A stretch of DNA of 63,087 nucleotides, the filler included, from Aduncisulcus paluster (taxonomy: Eukaryota), in NCBI GenBank assembly GCA_024181965.1. It is 30 parts of 30 records of this genome, joined end to end, with 100 filler letters (N's around TTAATTAATTAA, not from the genome) between each part and the next. Parts side by side here need not be neighbours in the genome. Positions count along the whole stretch, not along the records: positions 60,796 to 63,087 come from BQXS01009937.1; 29 more parts are not named here. One strand, written 5' to 3'. Each line of letters starts with the position of its first letter. The stretch's first letter is position 1. Of this stretch, positions 1,409 to 63,087 are shown one piece after another. Below the pieces are notes generated by a model, which saw only the letters and a list, made by a program, of their open reading frames with translations, had not been told where the DNA came from and did not search any database. A program made the translations under genes and the position numbers.

Positions 1409-2281
1409 AAGAACATCGGTGGGGCCCTGGCCGAAGGGTCCGCAGTCGCGGTAACCGGACCGCTGGCAGGGGAGGCAGCCGCCGGAGCACGGGGACTGCT
1501 CGGCGATGCCACCATTGCCGGTCGCGGAGGCCTTCTTGACATGCCTGGCATTCACCACGACGGGCCTCCGGTCGCGGGTCACACACCGGTGGAGCCTCCG
1601 AGCGTCCACCCTGGGCCCGTTGCCGATCACCCCGTGCCGACAGTCGACCACCCGGCCCCAGCGGTTGTCGGGGACCACTCGATGCCCAGCACACCGCACG
1701 ACGCAGTCCCGCTGGTGACCGACCACCCAGTGCCTACAGCGGGTGATCATTGGTCACCACAGTTCGACCCAAATGGCGGCCAGCACTACGCCTCTGGCGA
1801 CCCGCACCACCCGGGCGGATGGCCACCGCACACCCCGGAAGCTACATGGAGCAAGGGGGACTCGAACCCCGGGTGGGAACACATCAACCGCGGTCCGGTC
1901 AAAGACTGGATGGACTATCAGGCGCAGATCTCAGGTGTCGAGCGCACACCCGATGGACGCATACCTGAGTATGTGCGGATCGACCCCGAGACGGGTGACC
2001 CGGTCAAGTTCGATGGCCACACCTTCCGGGGCGGCCAAGAGGTGTACCTCGATGCAAAACAGGGATACTCGGCGCTTGCAACCGACGTCGGGAAACCGTG
2101 GGCGAATGGAATGGCCGACGGACTCCTGAAAGAGATCCCGCGGCAGCTCGACGCGATGCCACCAGGCGCCATCCTCGAAGTACACGTCTCAGACCCCATT
2201 GGCGCTCAAGCGATACGCAACCTGCTGGATAACGCAGATCTGTACGACGTGAACGTGATCTACACACCGAAGGCGCCATGA
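1409..2281 (+). CDS. Polymorphic toxin C-terminal part with Tox-REase-5-like nuclease domain (5' truncated)
   Basis: Frame open from the contig start; Pro/His-rich linker, then YQAQISG...FDG...LDAK.GY restriction-endonuclease-fold signature; GC-rich actinobacterial codon usage. Confidence 0.75.
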   Translation, partial: KNIGGALAEGSAVAVTGPLAGEAAAGARGLLGDATIAGRGGLLDMPGIHHDGPPVAGHTPVEPPSVHPGPVADHPVPTVDHPAPAVVGDHSMPSTPHDAVPLVTDHPVPTAGDHWSPQFDPNGGQHYASGDPHHPGGWPPHTPEATWSKGDSNPGWEHINRGPVKDWMDYQAQISGVERTPDGRIPEYVRIDPETGDPVKFDGHTFRGGQEVYLDAKQGYSALATDVGKPWANGMADGLLKEIPRQLDAMPPGAILEVHVSDPIGAQAIRNLLDNADLYDVNVIYTPKAP

Positions 2282-53859: not shown

Positions 53860-54860
53860 TTCGCTCCTGAGTCTAGCAAAACCTCCATAATCGTCCCTTT
53901 ATCTTTTCCATCTCGGAAAATTTTCATTTCCACCGTAAAATCCTTCCCTGTGCCTATTTTTAATATCTCATAATAACAACTTTTGTCTTTACTCTTAATT
54001 ACTTCCTTCTCCTTACAAAACTTTTCGAAATGTCCCTTCTTTCCACATTTTCTACAGATAATAGTCGGATAAAATCGATTGTATCGTGGATCGGTGCTAA
54101 CAATCCATTGAGCACCCCTTTTTTCGCTGGACCCCGTCAAATTACTCTGGGTACCCGCGAATCTTCTCTTTCCTTTGGCATTCCAGCAATCCTTCGCCAA
54201 ATGTCCCACTTTTCCACACACGTGACATTTTTTCCCAGTAACTTCATCCTTGGCTTTAAAATCCATTCGATAACGCTTTTCATACATCAACGCCTTGTGT
54301 GTTAACTCTGCTTCGATTAACTTCTTCAGTTCACTGATCGCCACGCCAATAATAGTACCCAACTCGCTTGTGTCCGTTATTCTTGCCTGTACACATTGTT
54401 TCAATCTTCCGGTGAACAAACCTCTTGTGTAAAGTTCCCCAATCTGTTTTGTTTCTCCCAATTTCGGCACTCGGTTCCGGATAGCCTTAAAATCCTTCGT
54501 ATACGCCATCAATGCATCCATCTTAAGCTCCGATGTCATACGAACCTGTCGCAAGCTGTCGTATAAGTTCAAGGTCGTGCTCGCTCCGAAAATCTTGTCC
54601 ACAGCGACTCGGGCCTTCCTTCTGTTCGACGCAGATTTGAAATCTGTTACCTCAGCCAGGTCCTTAATAATATCAAGTACCGTGCTGTCGACGAGTTCGG
54701 TCCATGCTTTTGTGCCCCCCAAACTCAGGTAATGATCAAACTCGCCTACGAAAGTGCTCCAAGACTCTGTCACCAAGTCGTCCAATCTCGGCATCTTCGG
54801 GGCCGCTTCCGTTGTAAATACAGTTGGTTTCGGTTCCTTGTGGGTCTCCTTACTTGTCAT
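53860..54860 (-). mobile_element. LTR-retrotransposon Gag-protease ORF (Ty3/gypsy-like), 3' truncated
   Basis: Two CX2CX4HX4C knuckles (CHVCGKVGHLAKDC, CRKCGKKGHFEKFC), then in-frame aspartic protease VLLDSGA. Confidence 0.8.
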
Positions 54861-54966
54861 CTAATATTAATATTGTAGACGTTAGCAATTTATTGAATAA
54901 ATGTGATCGGAGTGATCAAGGTTCTATAAATAGATCTGAGAAGTTACATCTGTAAAGGAATTAAAA

Positions 54967-55311
54967 ATGGACGATAAAGTTTTCACTTTATGCAATTATT
55001 CTGACTATGCTGAAAAGTTCTATCAGCGAGTCCAGGACGCAACAGGAACGCTGCCAGACATCAAGAAGAAATTCTTATCTGGTCTAAGACCAGCTCGATT
55101 CGCGGAAAGAGTAGCGATGGCTGATCTGGTAGACGCAGCTCCAAACACTATTAAAGGTGTCAGAATCATTATGAGGGAAGCTTTAGCCACTTGGAACACC
55201 ATCTTAGAAGTCTTTGAAGAAGCTAAAGCCTGCGGAATGTTCGATTTGGAACGGAAGTCGGAACAAGTTGAAAAGCCTCTACATGACCACGAGACAGTTT
55301 TTTTAGAAGGA
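54967..55311 (+). CDS. Possible Gag-like fragment (3' truncated)
   Basis: Y...F...KKFLSGLRP pattern resembles a Gag capsid C-terminal region. Confidence 0.35.
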
Positions 55312-55411
55312 NNNNNNNNNNNNNNNNNNNNNNNNNNNNNNNNNNNNNNNNNNNNTTAATTAATTAANNNNNNNNNNNNNNNNNNNNNNNNNNNNNNNNN
55401 NNNNNNNNNNN

Positions 55412-58400
55412 CTTTCATGATTATCCTCAACAATCTTATCCCCAACAAACTCTCTCTTAACAACATCAAGAACAGGGTGGAAGAGAGGCCAAGCTTCAGA
55501 ACAGAGGGATTTGTTGGGGGTTGAATCATCACTTGAGAGGGAGATATATGATAGAATATTCATCCAATGTCCATAACACTCACTATCATTGTATATCCTC
55601 AACCAAGCTCTGATATATGGTTTGATGAGGGTGAGAATAGAGGATTTAGTGGAAGAAGAGAGAGAAATAGAGATGTTTCTGAGAGTTGTTAATAAATTTA
55701 GAGCAACATTACCTCCCAACTTCTCCTTACTTCCTCTCTCAAGAATACGTTGGAAAGTGGGGGAGATCTTTGGAAGGAAGGAATCCAATTTATCATAAAT
55801 TTTAAAAGTATAACCCATACAAATCACACAATATTCTTCATCAACATTTCCTTCCAACACTTCCTCACATCTTGATAGATGATCAATGAAAGTGTCAATG
55901 AGATCATTCAGATCAGGAATAGGGAGATAGATCTTATTTCCAGAAATAACATGTCTAACAAAACATTGTAAACACTGAACACAAAGAATAATCTCTCTCT
56001 TGGGCTCTTTAATCTCACTCTTTGATTGGAATGCAAGTAAGACAGAAAGAATTTCATCTCGATGTTCATGGTATAGTTTGGAAGTGGATTCTGAGTCAGG
56101 GCATTTCTTGATAGATTCAACCAATTCTGACCATTTTTTTAGAGAAGGATAACAGTTATCAATATATCTTGTATAATCTCTACTCCAACCCCCATTATTC
56201 TTGCACCATTCCATGTTGGTATCATATTTAGGAGATATGTAAGGAACAAGAGATGGAACAGTTGAGATCATGGAAATGAGTTTGGACCAACATATGATTC
56301 CATTTTCATGTGTTTTCTTCTTGAGTAAGGACCCGTATTTGATGCCCCATTTATGTTCTTTCCCTTTTAGAACTTTATACCACCCATCAAGAAGATCCTT
56401 AACATTATCACATATTTCAACGGCATAGGCCTGATCACGACATAAGTTTGAAAAGAAATATAAAACTCTTTCATGGTTATCCCCAACAATCTTATCCCCA
56501 ACAAACTCTCTCTTAACAACATCAAGAACCGGGTGGAAGAAATACCAAGCTTCAGAAAAGACGGATTTGTTATGGGATTTTTTATCACTTGAGAGGGTGA
56601 TTGTTGATAGAATAAACATCCATTCTCCATAACACTTACTATCATTGTATATCCTCAACCAATCTTTGATATATGGTTTGATGAGGGTGAGAATAGAGGA
56701 TCGAGTGGAAGATGAACGAAAATTAGAGATGTTTCTGAGAGTTTTTAATAAATTTAGATGAACATCACCTCTCAACTTCTCCTTGCTTCCTCTCTCAAGA
56801 ATATGTTGGAAAGTGGGGGAGATCTTTGGAAGGAAGGAATCCCATTTATCTTGAAATAAACCAGAATAATTGATACAAATCCCACAATACTTTTCATCAA
56901 CATCTCCTTCCAACACTTCCTCACATCTTGATAGATGATCAATGAAAGTGTCAATGAGATCATTCAGATCAGGAATAGGGAGAAAGATATCATTTCCAGA
57001 AATATAATGCCTAACAAACCATCTTAAACACTGAACACAAAGAATAATCTCTCTCTTGTGCTCTTCAATCTCACTCTTTGATTGGAATGCAAGAAAGACA
57101 GAAAGAATCTCATCTCGATGTTTACGGTACAGTTTGGAAGTGGATTCTGAGTCAGGGGATTTCTTGATAGCTTCAACCAATTCTGACCATTTCTTGACAA
57201 ACCGGATTATAAATTTACAGTTTTCAAGATATCTTGAATAATCTTCTTCCCAAGCACCATTCTGATAGCATGTTTTGATTAAAATATCAAATTTAGGTGA
57301 GATGAAAGGAACAAGATATGGAACAGTGGAGAACATGGAAATGAGAGAAGACCAAAATTTGATTCCCCGCTTATGTTCATTCTTATTTATAACTTCAAAC
57401 CACTCAACAAGAAGATCATTAACATTATCATAGATTTCAACAGCATGTGATGGATCACAACATAAGTGGGAGAAGAATAATAAAACCCTTTCATGATCAT
57501 CCTTAACAATTTTATCCCAAAAAAACTTTCTCTTAACAACATCAAGAACAGGGTGGAAGAGAGGCCAAGCTTCAGAACACATGGATTTGTTGGGGGTTGA
57601 ATTATCACTTGAGAGGGTGATTTGTGATAGAATAATCATCCAATGTCCATAACACTCACTATCATTGTATATCCTCAACCAATCTCTGATGTATGGTTTG
57701 ATGAGGGTGAGAATAGAGGATCGGGTGGAAGAAGAGGTACATAGGGAAACATTTCGAAGAGTTTTTAAAACATACAGAGTAAAGTCACCTCCCAACTTCT
57801 CCTTACTTCCTCTCTCAAGAATACGTTGGAAAGTGGGGGAGATCTTTTGAAGGAAGGAATCCTTTTTATCTTTAACTTTGAAAGTATAACACATACAAAT
57901 CACACAATACTCTTCATCAACATCTCCTTCCAACACTTCCTCACATCTTGATAGATGACCAATAAAAGTGTCAATGAGATCATTCAGATCAGGAATAGCG
58001 AGATAGATCTTATTTTCACAAATAACATGTCTAACAAACCATCTTAAACACTGAGCACAAAGAACAATCTCTCTCTTGTGCTCTTCAATCTCACTCTTTG
58101 ATTGGAATGCAAGGAAGACAGAAAGAATCTCATCTCGATGTTCACGATAGAGTTTGGAAATGGATTCTGAGTCAGGGGATTTTAGTATTGTTTGAGCTAA
58201 TTCTGACCATTTCTTTAGAAATGAATAACAATTACCAAGATATTTTGTATAATCTTCACTCGTTACTTCTTCCTTAATTCCATTCTTCCTACACCATTCC
58301 ACAAGAACTCCAGTATTCTTGCACCATTCCATGTCGACATCATATTTAGGAGATATGTGAGGGACAAGAGATGGAACTGTGGAGAACATGGAAATGAGTA

Positions 58401-60423
58401 TGGACCAGAATTTGATTCCCCATTCATGTTCTTCCTTCTTTATAACTGTAAACCACACATCAAGAAGATCCTTAACATTATCATAGATTTCAACAGCATG
58501 TGATGGAACATAACATAAGTGGGAGAAGAATACTAAAACCCATTCATGCCCATCCTCAACAATCTTATCCCCAACAAACTCTCTCTTAACAACATCAAGA
58601 ACAGGGTGGAAGAGAGGCCAAGCTTCAGAACAGATGGATTTGTTGGGGGTTGAATCATCACTTGAGAGGGTGATTTTTGAAAGAATAAACATCCATTGTC
58701 CATAACACTCACTATCATTGTATATCCTCAACCAATCTCTGATATATGGTTTGATGAGGGTGAGAATAGAGGATCGAGTGGAAGAAGAGGGAGAATTAGA
58801 GATGTTACACATAGTATTTAATAATTTAAGAGCAACATCACCTCCCAACTTCTCCTTACTTCCTCTCTCAAGAATATGTTGGAAAGTGGGGGAGATCTTT
58901 GGAAGGAAGGAATCCCATTTATCTTGAAATAAACCAGAATAATTGATACAAATCCCACAATACTTTTCATCAACATCTCCTTCCAACACTTCCTCACATC
59001 TTGATAGATGATCAATGAAAGTGTCAATGAGATCATTCAGATCAGGAATAGGGAGATAGATAGCATTTCCAGAAATAGAGTGTTGTACAAACCATTGTAA
59101 ACACTGAGCACAAAGAACAATCTCTCTCTTGTGCTCTTTAATCTCACTCTTTGATTGGAATGTAAGGAAGACAGAAAGAATCTCATCTCGATGGTTATGG
59201 TAGAGTTTGGAAGTGGATGCTGAGTCAGGGCATTTCTTGATAGATTCAACCAATTTTGACCATTTTTTCAGAGAAGGATAACAATTAATAAGATATCTTG
59301 TATAATCTCCACTCCAACCCCCATTATCCTTGCACCATTCCATGTTGGTATCATATTTAGGAGATATGTGAGGAACAAGAGATGGAACAGTGGAGAGCAT
59401 GGAAATGAGTCTGAACGAGTATTTGATTCCCCGATTACCATCACCTTTCCCTTCTTCACTCTTCTTCTTTATCATCTCAAACCAACCATCAAGAAGACCA
59501 TCTTTAATACAATCATGCACTTCAACAGCTTGGGAAGGAATACAACTCAAGTTAGCAAAGAACAATAAACAACGAATTACAGCAGCATCATCAAATGTAA
59601 TACCTTTGGAAGCAGTATCCTTAATCACATCCAAGACAGGATGGAAGACAAACCAGAGTTGTGAGGAACGATCTTTATGAGGACCGGTGTTATCTTTATC
59701 ATTCGTGATATTCTTCAAGATATTTGTCCACAAGAAAAAGAACTTCTTGTCAGGATACTTCTTCATCCAAGGTAAGATGTGAGGGAGAAGAAGGGATAAA
59801 AGAGAGTTCTTGGTGGGATCATCATCGGCAAATGCAATATTTCTGCATGTTTGTAGGATGTCCTCAATAAAAGAATCTTCAAATTTCTTGGATAGGCCAA
59901 GAATAAACATCTTGGAGAGGAGGGAAGAAATTTGGGGCAAAATGGTTGGAGAAAGCAATAATTCAGTCATTTCAACACATGTCGCAATACCAATTATCCT
60001 AAATAATAACATTGTAATGGAATTCACTCCAACATCATCAGTTCCAATTCCACCTTCTTCCTCCTCCTCTTCTTCTTCTTCTTTCACTCTCAGAATATTT
60101 TCAACTCGGATCATTGAAGGCAAGAAAATGTCATTAATGTTATTGATGGAATATCTATCCAGAATAACCTCAATATCATCCTCATCTTCCTTCAAAGTCC
60201 CATCTCCTTTTGTAACTTTATGCTTCACGAACAAGGACAAACATTCGAAACAAAGCTCAAAGAGATCTATATTGGATGTGATAGCAGAGGGTGAAGAAGA
60301 AGCGAATTCATCAAAGATAGCCTTGAGACGAGGATATGATTCTTTGTAAAGGGATGTGATGGCAGGTTGAGACTCAGTTCTTTTGATTGACATAATCAAG
60401 GACTTTAATTCCGATTCTTTCAT
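55412..60423 (-). CDS. Very large eukaryote-like helical repeat protein with ~350-aa units (3' truncated)
   Basis: Uninterrupted >1670-codon ORF; KKWS anchor recurs at 1053, 1020 and 1056 nt spacing; poly-Glu tract. Confidence 0.85.
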
Positions 60424-60658
60424 CTTTACAGCATCTGTTTTGAGTTCTTCTCTCTTCTTCTTTCACTCTCAGAATATTTTCAACTCGGATCATTGAAGGC
60501 AAGAAAATGTCATTAATGTTATTGATGGAATATCTATCCAGAATAACCTCAATATCATCCTCATCTTCCTTCAAAGTCCCATCTCCTTTTGTAACTTTAT
60601 GCTTCACGAACAAGGACAAACATTCGAAACAAAGCTCAAAGAGATCTATATTGGATGT
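60074..60658. repeat. 206-bp direct duplication (60074-60279 and 60453-60658)
   Basis: Identical sequence at 379-nt offset near the contig end. Confidence 0.85.
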
Positions 60659-60795
60659 TCTTCTTCAATCCTCCTCTTCTCTTCTTCAAGCTTCANNNNN
60701 NNNNNNNNNNNNNNNNNNNNNNNNNNNNNNNNNNNNNNNTTAATTAATTAANNNNNNNNNNNNNNNNNNNNNNNNNNNNNNNNNNNNNNNNNNNN

Positions 60796-61262
60796 AGAAA
60801 GAAATGGAAAGAAAGTTGCGCGAAAGAGAGGTTCGTGAACGTGAAATTAGAAGAGTCGAGAGGGAGAGGGCAGCGATGCAAGCACAGAAAGATCGTGATG
60901 AAGAGGAGAAATACCAGCTCTGGAAAAGGGAACAAGAACTCAAAGAAATGCAGAAGAAAAGAGAAGAATTGGACAGACTTGAGAAAGAAGCTGAGCTTAG
61001 AAGTCACCAACAGAAGAGTTCCGAGCGAAAACAATATGCTTCCAGTTTTGCAGTCACACCAACCCCACCAAGAAGATCTGGTTGGGATGAAGATTATTCA
61101 GCGCACAGTGGTGTTGCGAGTTCAAAAGCCCCTTCAAAGGAGAAGGAAATGACCAATCATGTTCTTTATGCGATGCTTAATTTGTTAAATGCTCTTGATA
61201 AAGATAGTTTGGAAATAATCGGATCTGAAGTAGCAATCAGATTAAAGAGTAAAAAATTGTAA
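60796..61262 (+). CDS. Hypothetical charged coiled-coil protein C-terminus (5' truncated)
   Basis: E/R/K-rich ORF followed by a Ser/Pro linker and short helical tail. Confidence 0.6.
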
Positions 61263-61266
61263 TAAT

Positions 61267-61800
61267 TGATCTCAGTTGAGATCATCAACGTAGTTTATAG
61301 TTTATATATTTAAGTCGTAAATAATGTTATGCTGTTCATGTACTATAACCGGTTGTTACCGGCATGTACCGGCTAATGCAAACCATGAGTTTGAGTAACT
61401 CAAATTGAGTCCCTGTATTGACGATATAACCAGTGGAATTTATTAAGGAGGTCTATCTTTCCAAACTCTGCTAGGAGAAAAATAAAGCGTGCCATGTAAT
61501 GGACACAGGTCCATATTGCAGGGAAAAGGGCCGGTCAGGCACCTGATCACCTGCAGGGACGTTTACGCAGGTAAACGATCCACTGAATAATTCTTATAGT
61601 AAATTTTGCTTCGCTTTAGAATATTTTTATTTCATTTCGAGGTCCTGCAGCTATTTCAAATAGCTGAAGTTCAGCCACGCTAAATCAGTGATTTAGGAAC
61701 TTCCTATCGTTGAACTAGGTAACCGGTACAGCCGGGGTGAATGCCGGTTGCCATCACATCACTTGAATGCCAGTAGATTTGGATATCCAGTGGATATCCA
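61267..61800. repeat. Cluster of short perfect palindromes, several overlapping
   Basis: e.g. TGATCTCA-GT-TGAGATCA, TTTGAGT-A-ACTCAAA, CAGCTATTT-C-AAATAGCTG, CTAAATCA-G-TGATTTAG, TGGATATCCA-G-TGGATATCCA. Confidence 0.8.
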
Positions 61801-62517
61801 TATATGATATAGCATAAAAGTTAAGACATTGAAAAAGAAAATAAATAAATTATATTGATGACCAAATGCATATCTCAGAATATTTCCAAGTCAATAAATA
61901 TGTTCATCGAAAGAATTCTTGATGGAAGTAAATAAAAATAATGCAAGACAATTTGATTGAAAAATAAAATAATTTAATTTCATATATATTAAAAATATAT
62001 ATAATATATCCATAATCATTTCAAATGTCTTAAAATTCCTTCTTTAAGAGAGCCAGCAACTTTATGAATTCGATATGTTCCATCACATCCTTTCAATTCG
62101 TGAGGAATCTCTTTGAAAAATGCTTTAATAGTTNNNNNNNNNNNNNNNNNNNNTTTCATGTAGTCCCTATCCAGTGGATATCCATATATGATATAGCATA
62201 AAAGTTAAGACATTGAAAAAGAAAATAAATAAATTATATTGATGACCAAATGCATATCTCAGAATATTTCCAAGTCAATAAATATGTTCATCGAAAGAAT
62301 TCTTGATGGAAGTAAATAAAAATAATACAAGACAATTTGATTGAAAAATAAAATAATTTAATTTCATATATATTAAAAATATATATAATATATCCATAAT
62401 CATTTCAAATGTCTTAAAATTCCTTCTTTAAGAGAGCCAGCAACTTTATGAATTCGATATGTTCCATCACATCCTTTCAATTCGTGAGGAATCTCTTTGA
62501 AAAATGCTTTAATAGTT
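61784..62517. repeat. 350-bp direct repeat flanking an N gap (61784-62133 and 62168-62517), one mismatch
   Basis: 384-nt offset; G at 61943 versus A at 62327. Confidence 0.9.
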
Positions 62518-63087
62518 TGACTTGTCACAACATCGGGTGCGGAACAAGAAGAAGAAGAAGGAAGTAAAGATCCACTCGACGGTGCATGTTGTTGTTTGCC
62601 GGCCTTGATTGAACTTTCAGTCATTGAATCCACACTAGACGGAGCTAATACCCCTGAAGAGTCTTTTCTTTCAATAGATCCGTCTTCTCCGTGCCTTCGA
62701 CTGGAGAGAGAGTGAGAAGGAGTCTTTTGTATCCATAAATCCCGATTCCAATCCTTCAAAAGATCACATTTGTTTAGAAATACAACGACACTAACCTTCT
62801 TTACATGCATTTCTTTCTTTGTAAATGAAACGATTGGCCATACGTAACCTCTCTTGGGATGAAATATTAGGGTAGAAATATGATCAGGCGTAATAATAGA
62901 TTTTGGGGGGATTTTGAGAATCCTCGCGGCAATATCATGTCTATACACTCTATCTTCAGACAATCTGGCACCCAGGGCATCGACTCCGACCATACAGACA
63001 AAACAAGATTTGTATTTCTTGGAGGATTGTGATTGATACTGGTATGAGAAGGAATGAGGAAATTTCGTAGGAATAACGGGATCTCTA
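62400..63087 (-). CDS. YqeC-like (selenium cofactor accessory) protein, C-terminal part with Ser-rich insertions (5' end beyond window)
   Basis: Frame open to the window end: RDPVIP...VGVDALGARLSEDRVYR...IITPDHISTLIFHPKRG...VVFLNKCD...AGSLKEG. Confidence 0.6.
   Translation of the reverse strand, partial: RDPVIPTKFPHSFSYQYQSQSSKKYKSCFVCMVGVDALGARLSEDRVYRHDIAARILKIPPKSIITPDHISTLIFHPKRGYVWPIVSFTKKEMHVKKVSVVVFLNKCDLLKDWNRDLWIQKTPSHSLSSRRHGEDGSIERKDSSGVLAPSSVDSMTESSIKAGKQQHAPSSGSLLPSSSSCSAPDVVTSQTIKAFFKEIPHELKGCDGTYRIHKVAGSLKEGILRHLK

Follow-up and report, generated by a model that had tools for sequence, protein, structure and literature searches.

A YqeC-family gene in the DNA of the anaerobic flagellate Aduncisulcus paluster and the question of a selenium trait in a eukaryote

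Introduction

Can a gene whose bacterial relatives are bound up with a selenium trait be at home in a eukaryote? The question is raised by a stretch of 63,087 nucleotides from the GenBank assembly of Aduncisulcus paluster (GCA_024181965.1; "the window" below means this whole stretch), at whose end a minus-strand reading frame carries the motifs of YqeC. A first-pass annotation, made by a model from the sequence alone, saw in this frame a laterally acquired, domesticated yqeC. The frame hints at a trait thought to be purely prokaryotic in a host that is a free-living anaerobic relative of Giardia. In prokaryotes the selenium-cofactor trait reportedly consists of SelD, YqeB and YqeC together with an enzyme of the xanthine dehydrogenase (XDH) family, as Haft and Self and also Zhang are said to have set out in 2008. 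The use of labile selenium by molybdenum hydroxylases is treated as a prokaryotic trait in the accessible portions of PMC5029168, PMC9312934 and PMC4989117, and the maturation chemistry of these hydroxylases is given as still unknown in the accessible portion of PMC11448449. Among the matches listed by our literature searches, those for YqeC and eukaryotes discuss no eukaryotic YqeC, those on YqeB/YqeC since 2017 concern bacteria or unrelated matters only, those on Aduncisulcus do not, judging by titles and abstracts, deal with selenium or molybdenum, and those with protist terms contain no "selenium-dependent molybdenum".

Our analysis suggests that the window holds the 3' two-thirds of a genuine YqeC-family gene of bacterial ancestry, which lies in the nucleus of a fornicate flagellate and would encode a nucleoside triphosphatase (NTPase) of the SIMIBI class that helps in the maturation of a molybdenum enzyme. 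We give this reading as a whole a probability of roughly 0.7.

A member of the YqeC family

The gene lies on the last of the 30 short contigs that were joined (N44-TTAATTAATTAA-N44 at the joints) to form the window, namely positions 60796-63087 (BQXS01009937.1; 2292 nucleotides, GC content 0.356). The first-pass annotation had described a minus-strand frame that reaches the window edge and carries five motifs in a given order. Indeed, the open reading frame (ORF) at 62400-63086 is open for 228 codons, with an open 5' end that coincides with the contig end, and has the five motifs in just that order. Its parts are given here with residues (aa) counted along the fragment and with conservation as in the 75-row alignment described below.

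62400..63086, minus strand: C-terminal 228 codons of a YqeC-family gene, with its stop; the frame is still open where the contig ends (63087)
63069..63083, minus strand: DPVIP motif (aa 2-6), family-wide E/D-PVIP; P186 invariant, V187 and P189 conserved in at least 90%
63009..63062, minus strand: protist-specific insert 2 (FPHSFSYQYQSQSSKKYK), in 0 of 13 bacterial rows of a smaller alignment; it matches residues 195-199 of the protist relative P0003 (introduced below), where the predicted local distance difference test (pLDDT) is below 50
62940..62990, minus strand: G-x-D-A-L-G...V-Y-R block (aa 33-49), VGVDALGARLSEDRVYR (VGVDALG..L....VYR); G218 invariant
62847..62897, minus strand: IITPDH..TLIFHP..G block (aa 64-80), IITPDHISTLIFHPKRG
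62814..62846, minus strand: protist-specific insert 3 (YVWPIVSFTKK), from the alignment with bacterial YqeC
62763..62786, minus strand: VVFLNKCD, NKxD-like (aa 101-108); N289 and K290 invariant, D292 conserved in at least 90%
62514..62729, minus strand: Ser-rich low-complexity insert 4 (aa 120-191; 72 residues, 21 of them Ser), predicted to be disordered
62430..62441, minus strand: AGSL, the terminal G-S motif of the family's last strand (aa 216-219)

The NKxD-like FLNKCD motif is probably the base-specificity element (G4 type) of the NTPase, as it resembles the guanine-specificity motif of such GTPases. Insert 4, between VVFLNKCD and the C-terminal block, contains a (CTT)n Ser-codon microsatellite; its equivalent in P0003 (residues 306-344) has pLDDT mostly below 50. 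The first-pass annotation spoke of Ser/Gln-rich inserts; low-complexity inserts are real, but they are rich in Ser rather than in Ser and Gln.

Judged by its sequence, the gene is securely a genuine member of the YqeC family. Matched to the NCBIfam profile TIGR03172 ("selenium cofactor biosynthesis protein YqeC"), the fragment covers profile positions 121-192 of 209 (E 2.4e-6, 27.5 bits), and the series PVIP, GxDALG, V[FY]R, ITP, HPxG, FLNKxD, GS at its C-terminal side follows the family order. On the other side of the balance, Pfam gave no match for the 228-residue fragment alone, the TIGR03172 score is under the cut-off (27.5 versus 73.05 bits), and the window holds part of the gene only, with the Walker A motif outside it. 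The low score arises because the N-terminal two-thirds of the domain are missing from the fragment, and much of what is missing could be recovered. A search of 5.8 billion proteins with the fragment returned three proteins. The first, P0001, is an ATG-started version of the window ORF. The second, P0002 (321 residues, on a 13.4-kb contig), ends in 138 residues that are 100% identical to the first 138 of the window frame; P0002 thus represents the 5' portion of the window gene, on a contig that overlaps but was left unmerged, and supplies its N-terminal 183 residues. The third, P0003, is a complete relative of 391 residues on a 19.3-kb contig (GenBank GKT29791.1, "YqeC like protein" of Aduncisulcus paluster).

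With these longer forms both curated cut-offs are exceeded: TIGR03172 scores 104.7 bits for P0002 and 104 bits for P0003 (cut-off 73.05), and Pfam PF19842 (YqeC) 86.7 and 87.8 bits respectively (cut-off 27.6). Both proteins start with the Walker A P-loop GGGGKT[ST] in the form IVGGGGKTS, and both have the EADG strand VEADGARGKPLKA. In an alignment of 75 rows, 72 of them bacterial YqeC, P186, G218, N289 and K290 are the same in every row, and another 28 positions, including V187, P189, V231, T250, G264, F287, L288 and D292, show at least 90% conservation. In a feature search of the ESM Atlas all 30 nearest clusters were YqeC. The motif order that the first-pass annotation had taken to be that of YqeC is therefore borne out by profile match, cut-offs and invariant residues, and the N-terminal GxGGKT P-loop that it advised looking for is present, as GGGGKT, on the overlapping contig. 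A smaller search with the fragment, against a representative library, gave five proteins at E ≤0.001, two of them the gene itself and two weak bacterial YqeC, P0005 (E 2e-4) and P0006 (E 5e-4). The remaining hit, the 1051-residue repeat protein P0004 (E 4.7e-6), was set aside as compositional, since it aligns only with query residues 166-208, in the low-complexity tail, across five repeats.

GenBank already names P0003 YqeC-like, so the identification as such is not new to the databases. What is new is a member of the YqeC family in an unusual, eukaryotic host.

Two protist copies and their inserts

P0003 has the same architecture as the window gene, but it is complete and at a separate locus, whereas the window copy is split over two contigs. 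Both protist proteins contain four inserts relative to bacterial YqeC, which explains why the protist form has 391 residues and the bacterial one about 260. Their positions in P0003 are as follows.

Residues about 95-130: insert 1
Residues 190-209: insert 2
Residues 265-275: insert 3
Residues 306-344: insert 4, long and Ser-rich

None of the four occurs in any of the 72 aligned bacterial sequences. They are lineage-specific and mostly disordered, and every conserved family motif is kept around them. A model of P0003, computed by AlphaFold 2 (AF2) from the 75-row alignment, has a confident core (mean pLDDT 77.6, predicted template modelling score 0.77) and falls below a pLDDT of 50 at residues 99-124, 195-199, 306-327, 332-334 and 336-344. 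The Ser-rich C-terminal insert of P0003 is largely different from that of the window copy, and shorter.

The two copies are about 80% identical overall and 82-86% identical in the core. Counted by alignment column, identity in the core is 99/120 for the window part against P0003 and 204/237 for P0002 against P0003, while in the inserts it is 50/87 and 52/80. The better conservation of the core is the pattern expected under purifying selection on the YqeC core in both copies. Moreover, since two diverged copies exist, the gene entered the protist early enough for a duplication to follow. The pair would also provide a second and very divergent lineage of YqeC; residues that it still shares with bacterial YqeC would help to mark out the functional core of an NTPase so far uncharacterised.

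Two sequencing runs, X1 and X2, also cover the gene. The sole indel between the window and both runs consists of 3 nucleotides in the Ser-codon microsatellite of insert 4, where both have three extra bases (AAG on the plus strand) behind 62545; it is in-frame.

Predicted fold and mode of action

What might such a protein do? Sequence searches of the PDB with P0003 gave one chance-level row (E 0.1), and a Foldseek search of the PDB with the model gave nothing at E ≤0.001 (best Npa3, E 0.016), probably because the inserts hurt the search. An exhaustive alignment of the model to 48,161 PDB representatives with VIA-align gave the following matches.

8r9r_A, FlhF: Z 11.2, root-mean-square deviation 3.1, 176 residues aligned
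5gad_l, signal recognition particle (SRP) receptor: Z 11.1
3zq6_A, TRC40: Z 9.9
5u1g_D, ParA: Z 9.5
5hci_A, Npa3: Z 9.3
5xkt_A, UreG: Z 9.2
2www_A, MeaB: Z 7.9
3kje_A, CooC1: Z 7.8
3vx3_A, HypB: Z 7.5

On the predicted model, then, the protein is a P-loop NTPase of the SIMIBI class. It has the Walker A motif GGGGKT[ST], an hhhhEADG strand resembling Walker B, and the NKxD-like FLNKCD, which suggests GTP as the nucleotide. The predicted fold is like that of the SIMIBI NTPases that insert metallocentres (UreG, HypB, MeaB, CooC) and of their kin FlhF and the SRP GTPases, with Z from 11.2 to 7.5, and a P-loop plus an NKxD-like motif is common to both sides. The likeness is one of function, by analogy a nucleotide-gated delivery or insertion of a metal cofactor, and not of family membership, since at the sequence level the protist protein does not belong to those families. 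A metal-binding motif of the CxCC or CPH type was not noticed in it, although no search for one was made.

From these likenesses and from the company that bacterial YqeC keeps, described next, we infer the use of a nucleotide, a molybdenum-enzyme client and any role of selenium. The protein would give nucleotide-driven help at the last step in which the molybdenum cofactor of an XDH-family hydroxylase is matured or inserted. Its partners would be accessory proteins of the YqeB or XdhC type, and the chalcogen donor could be selenophosphate from SelD or, alternatively, sulfur.

Selenium or sulfur

The protist protein consists of the same domain as bacterial YqeC, for example that of the Escherichia yqeB-yqeC-mocA region (L014) or of Clostridioides difficile, with the motifs GGGGKT[ST], TTTTK, EADG, PVIP, GxDALG, V[FY]R, ITP, HPxG, FLNKxD and GS in the same order, at an identity of 23-34%. 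Of the 80 bacterial loci kept from a search of genomes (see below), 43 had full flanks. We scanned the neighbourhoods of 22 of these, hand-picking 103 ORFs from the 185 within about 2.5 kb. A YqeB gene lies near yqeC in 14 of the 22 loci, a gene of the XdhC family in 11, a MocA-type cytidylyltransferase in 8 and SelB in 3. Of YqeB, XdhC and MocA, 19 loci have one or more and 3 have none. In addition, YqeC and a MobA/MocA-like nucleotidyltransferase form a single protein in 7 of 120 listed relatives. Read from gene order, this bacterial context ties the YqeC family to the maturation of molybdenum hydroxylases. In L020, L023 and L035, yqeC stands directly behind selB and before an aldehyde-oxidoreductase maturation factor of the XdhC family, with no yqeB in the scanned stretch. 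The protist gene, by contrast, sits beside an unrelated ORF on its 2.3-kb contig and not beside yqeB, xdhC or mocA, and its host is a eukaryote. Operon-type clustering is not expected in a eukaryote.

Does the link extend to selenium in the protist? Of the two marker genes of the prokaryotic trait, YqeC is certainly present, while YqeB (the other marker) and SelD are represented in Aduncisulcus by orthogroup labels only. The labels come from the orthogroup table of the Preaxostyla genome paper (PMC10703272, supplementary file 3, sheets B and C), which includes the following Aduncisulcus members.

q2004194, YqeB family / XDH accessory factor: Gene.5531
q2009112, which holds an S. strix gene called SEPHS/selenophosphate synthase in that paper's manual table: Gene.7912
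q2003316, XdhC: Gene.4935 and Gene.10997
q2001227, XDH: Gene.2169
q2001600, MOCOS: Gene.2008
q2001001, SsnA / amidohydrolase: Gene.1699

For q2003316, q2001227, q2001600 and q2001001 the Aduncisulcus column was found by our own column count, checked by the Kipferlia GCA accessions (column 15). Orthogroup q2004194 also includes Monocercomonoides, Streblomastix, Paratrimastix, Carpediemonas, Chilomastix cuspidata, Dysnectes and Ergobibamus (PMC10703272). The YqeB-family, XdhC and SsnA-like orthogroups span many metamonads, among them the genome-based Monocercomonoides, Paratrimastix and Trichomonas, and the main text of the paper is silent on them (PMC10703272); there may thus be a wider toolkit of bacterial-type purine or molybdenum enzymes in Metamonada. 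In the 11 supplementary files of PMC10703272 "yqec" occurs 0 times, and its main text is without "molybd".

These labels make the signature of SelD, YqeB and YqeC plausible in Aduncisulcus but do not establish it. A. paluster, and perhaps other free-living metamonads, might have a complete selenium-dependent molybdenum hydroxylase system of the bacterial type, which would feed an anaerobic, ATP-yielding fermentation of purines or urate; we regard this as a tentative proposal, less likely than not. In such a system SelD would make selenophosphate, and YqeB, XdhC-type proteins and the YqeC NTPase would equip the molybdenum cofactor of an XDH-family enzyme with labile selenium. A lead on the side of this proposal is the listing of SsnA-like amidohydrolases across metamonads (PMC10703272). 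In gut bacteria YgeW belongs to the Se-dependent reductive route of urate use, and in the excerpt available of bioRxiv 10.1101/2025.04.24.650524 all strains with the gene cluster of that route have YqeB/C and SelD. Several points weigh against the proposal. A canonical eukaryotic XDH can do without both YqeC and selenium. In the accessible portion of PMC5029168, YqeC by itself is not regarded as marking the selenium-cofactor trait, and the Aduncisulcus members of the orthogroups derive from a transcriptome with many bacterial sequences (PMC9933649). The metamonad XDH looks eukaryote-type, with coral XDH as its best match, and has a MOCOS sulfurase alongside (PMC10703272), so that a role in sulfur chemistry only is a strong rival.

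According to this rival, which differs from our reading only in the chemistry served, the domesticated gene has no link to selenium and matures a sulfido-type molybdenum hydroxylase (the eukaryote-type XDH with MOCOS; PMC10703272, supplementary file 2) or serves another cofactor or client. We consider it a serious possibility, though one with less than an even chance. It draws strength from C. difficile, where, in the text of PMC11448449 available to us, deletion of yqeB phenocopies that of selD on xanthine and urate while deletion of yqeC has no obvious phenotype; the authors there call the role of YqeC uncertain, and only the partial complementation of a double mutant hints at one. It is also favoured by the 8 of 22 bacterial loci that have no YqeB in the scanned stretch. 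What speaks for selenium is the adjacency to YqeB and to SelB in the counts given above, together with the listing of Aduncisulcus in both the YqeB-family and the SEPHS orthogroups (PMC10703272).

The stakes of the two readings differ. A YqeC under selection, in two copies, in a eukaryote would extend the selenium trait across domains, especially if the YqeB-like, SelD-like and XDH genes are real, and a true selenium system would make A. paluster the first eukaryote with the third selenium utilisation trait, adding to the case that free-living metamonads drew on bacteria for the components of their anaerobic purine catabolism. Without the link to selenium, the gene would be one more lateral transfer into an anaerobic protist, of modest interest.

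Protist or bacterial DNA

Our reading also requires that the gene belong to the flagellate, and here the make-up of the window calls for caution. Composition sorts its contigs into three classes: those at GC 0.25-0.33 have genes of evident bacterial type (FlgH, a response regulator, ribosomal protein S1, PPK2, tRNA synthetases), those at GC 0.57-0.69 come from a high-GC bacterium, whose nearest genome among those compared, G001, has 37% of the window's words, and a few at GC 0.35-0.43 look eukaryote-like, with a 1687-residue repeated ORF and a zinc-knuckle ORF. With contigs from several organisms, context arguments across contig borders are meaningless in this window. The contig with the YqeC gene might then itself be bacterial, from food or a symbiont, and what GenBank lists as a "protist YqeC" would be a contaminant let through by a lenient filter. 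Such an origin is suggested by the mixture of at least two bacteria with protist DNA in the window, by the xenic culture and a published clean-up that took out only matches above 95% identity to non-metamonads (PMC9933649), and by the want of any intron, named eukaryotic neighbour or proven poly(A) transcript. We nevertheless think contamination improbable, for several reasons.

Among them are the two copies, about 80% identical and with four inserts in common that none of the 72 bacterial YqeC has, and the distance to bacteria. The nearest named protein of the window gene is from Aduncisulcus paluster, and bacterial relatives of the protist pair are 23-34% identical at best, 34% being the ceiling in spite of very deep databases (the 5.8 billion proteins and the GTDB genomes). 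In the protein collection the best 120 of 156 relatives were listed; the protist pair took the top two places, and 118 of the 120 are bacterial-type YqeC. The GTDB search, which took a single genome per species and spanned 185,579 species, confirmed 507 relatives, of which we kept the best 80. Moreover, the DNA of the contig has no match in G001, in which the TIGR03172 profile finds chance-level P-loop matches only (E 0.03 and 0.16, profile positions 1-30 and 1-52). GC content at third codon positions (GC3) is 0.307 in the gene, compared with 0.341 in the eukaryote-like ORFs of the window and 0.166 in 17 ORFs of the low-GC bacterium, and fits neither bacterium.

The remaining reasons lie in the DNA beside the gene, which contains the following features.

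61263..62399, no strand: non-coding spacer between two convergent ORFs, about 753 nucleotides after collapsing a duplicate
62134..62153, no strand: scaffold gap of 20 N, flanked by a duplication with an offset of 384 nucleotides
61335..61720, no strand: element that is dispersed and of high copy number, with odd perfect palindromes in chains; in run X2 the summed contig depth rises to 44,820, versus 2,193 over the gene
60798..61259, plus strand: convergent neighbour ORF, 154 residues, open at the contig start, with a Glu/Arg/Lys-rich coiled-coil-like stretch and a C-terminal tail

Across the gap, 61784-62133 equals 62168-62517, and the copy reaches from the final 39 codons of the gene through its stop into the 3' flank. 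A 1545-nucleotide contig of run X1, which spans from beyond 63087 down to 61629, has a single copy only; the duplication thus arose in scaffolding, and without it the spacer measures about 753 nucleotides. The long AT-rich spacer of the first-pass annotation is accordingly AT-rich beside the gene (GC 0.24 in 61780-62133, 0.40 in 61263-61779), but part of its length was scaffold duplication. The annotation's contrast with "bacterial contigs here" fails altogether: most of the AT-rich contigs in the window (GC 0.25-0.33) are bacterial, which makes the argument from AT-richness invalid. As evidence against a bacterial source we count instead that some 753 non-coding nucleotides separate two convergent ORFs, and that the spacer is packed with odd palindromes. 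It has 8 perfect ones (arms of at least 6) and 0 even ones in 871 nucleotides, where a first-order Markov simulation expects 0.42 and none of 2000 simulations reaches 8; the density, 4.4 per kb, is the highest of the 30 contigs in the window. Several are chained in 61390-61800, where TTTGAGTAACTCAAA overlaps ACTCAAATTGAGT, and CAGCTATTTCAAATAGCTG is followed by GCTGAAGTTCAGC. In run X2 the summed contig depth over 61335-61720 and 60796-61103 is 3 to 20 times that of the gene, and many contigs there continue unlike the window, so that both segments are dispersed repeats, of high copy number and on the same contig as the gene.

Set against a nuclear gene of the flagellate are a number of results. 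Correlation of relative synonymous codon usage is a weak separator (0.76 with the eukaryote-like ORFs versus 0.68 with the low-GC bacterium), no intron is visible in the gene's 687 nucleotides, and no poly(A) end was seen in the X1 contig, which covers the gene and extends 770 nucleotides past its stop into the repeat, the RNA nature of X1 being a guess. The neighbour ORF, for its part, matches no Pfam family at 1e-5 (best TAF4, E 0.0042, 17.3 bits against a cut-off of 33) and had none of 1952 longer candidate proteins at E ≤0.01, proteins of similar length not being searched; without a homologue of it, no flanking gene independently names the host. Nor does a tree single out a bacterial source. 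We built it by a quick method, unrooted, from 73 bacterial and 2 protist rows; 7 of the 80 loci (L021, L036, L039, L052, L054, L071, L082) were left out as partial matches or matches cut by a contig end, and 14 rows are fusions or over-extended ORFs, whose extra columns were removed by a 30% fill rule. The protist pair forms a clade with support 100 on a stem of 2.1 substitutions per site, compared with a median end branch of 0.49. Its nearest rows by path are Desulfotomaculaceae, Dehalococcoidales and Thermodesulfobacteriota, yet it has no supported bacterial sister and stands beside two long rows (Escherichia ruysiae and an Acidobacteria bin; SH-aLRT 82), an adjacency that long-branch attraction would give.

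Taken together, these observations support a place for the gene in protist DNA and not in the bacteria of the mixed assembly. We read it, most simply, as a nuclear gene of the fornicate flagellate host with bacterial ancestry. Of the lateral acquisition and domestication first proposed, protist DNA and bacterial ancestry are thus supported; the phylogeny that the first-pass annotation had called for returned relatives that are all bacterial-type, with the pair as a long branch that lacks a supported donor sister. As for the idea that the window copy is a decaying duplicate, a pseudogene, of the intact P0003, its split over two contigs, its C-terminal insert unlike that of P0003 (identity as counted above, with 22 gap columns) and the length variation of its microsatellite would fit decay, but we find it very improbable, since the frame is open across all 366 readable residues of P0002 and the window, the core is conserved at the level given above with every invariant family residue retained, the length variant is in-frame, and the split is explained by assembly, the two contigs overlapping at 100%.

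Other features of the window

Between 61181 and 61334 run X1 has no cover while X2 has, from which, both being contigs, we draw nothing. A tRNA scan of the contig and an Rfam scan of 53860-63087 gave nothing, and BLAST searches of the remaining window with the contig and with the neighbour ORF were likewise empty. The window as a whole draws on the DNA of three or more organisms: the protist, a bacterium of low GC and one of high GC that is related to G001. Some other ORFs of the window may be mentioned.

55360-60423, minus strand: ORF of 1687 residues with about 4 internal repeats of about 420 residues, reaching the contig end
53862-54860, minus strand: ORF of 333 residues with a CCHC zinc knuckle, on a contig of GC 0.43 with 3 odd palindromes
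1409-2278, plus strand: ORF of the high-GC bacterium with a Tox-REase-5 (restriction-endonuclease-fold toxin) domain, E 5.4e-7

The first of these matched no Pfam family and is probably a private expanded family of the protist; the second is likely a retroelement remnant of the Gag type. Finally, the contig at 14643-20789 (GC 0.40) runs for about 6 kb without an ORF of more than 128 residues, and the dihydroorotate (DHO) dehydrogenase ORF at its end has a codon usage that resembles that of the low-GC bacterium (r 0.83).

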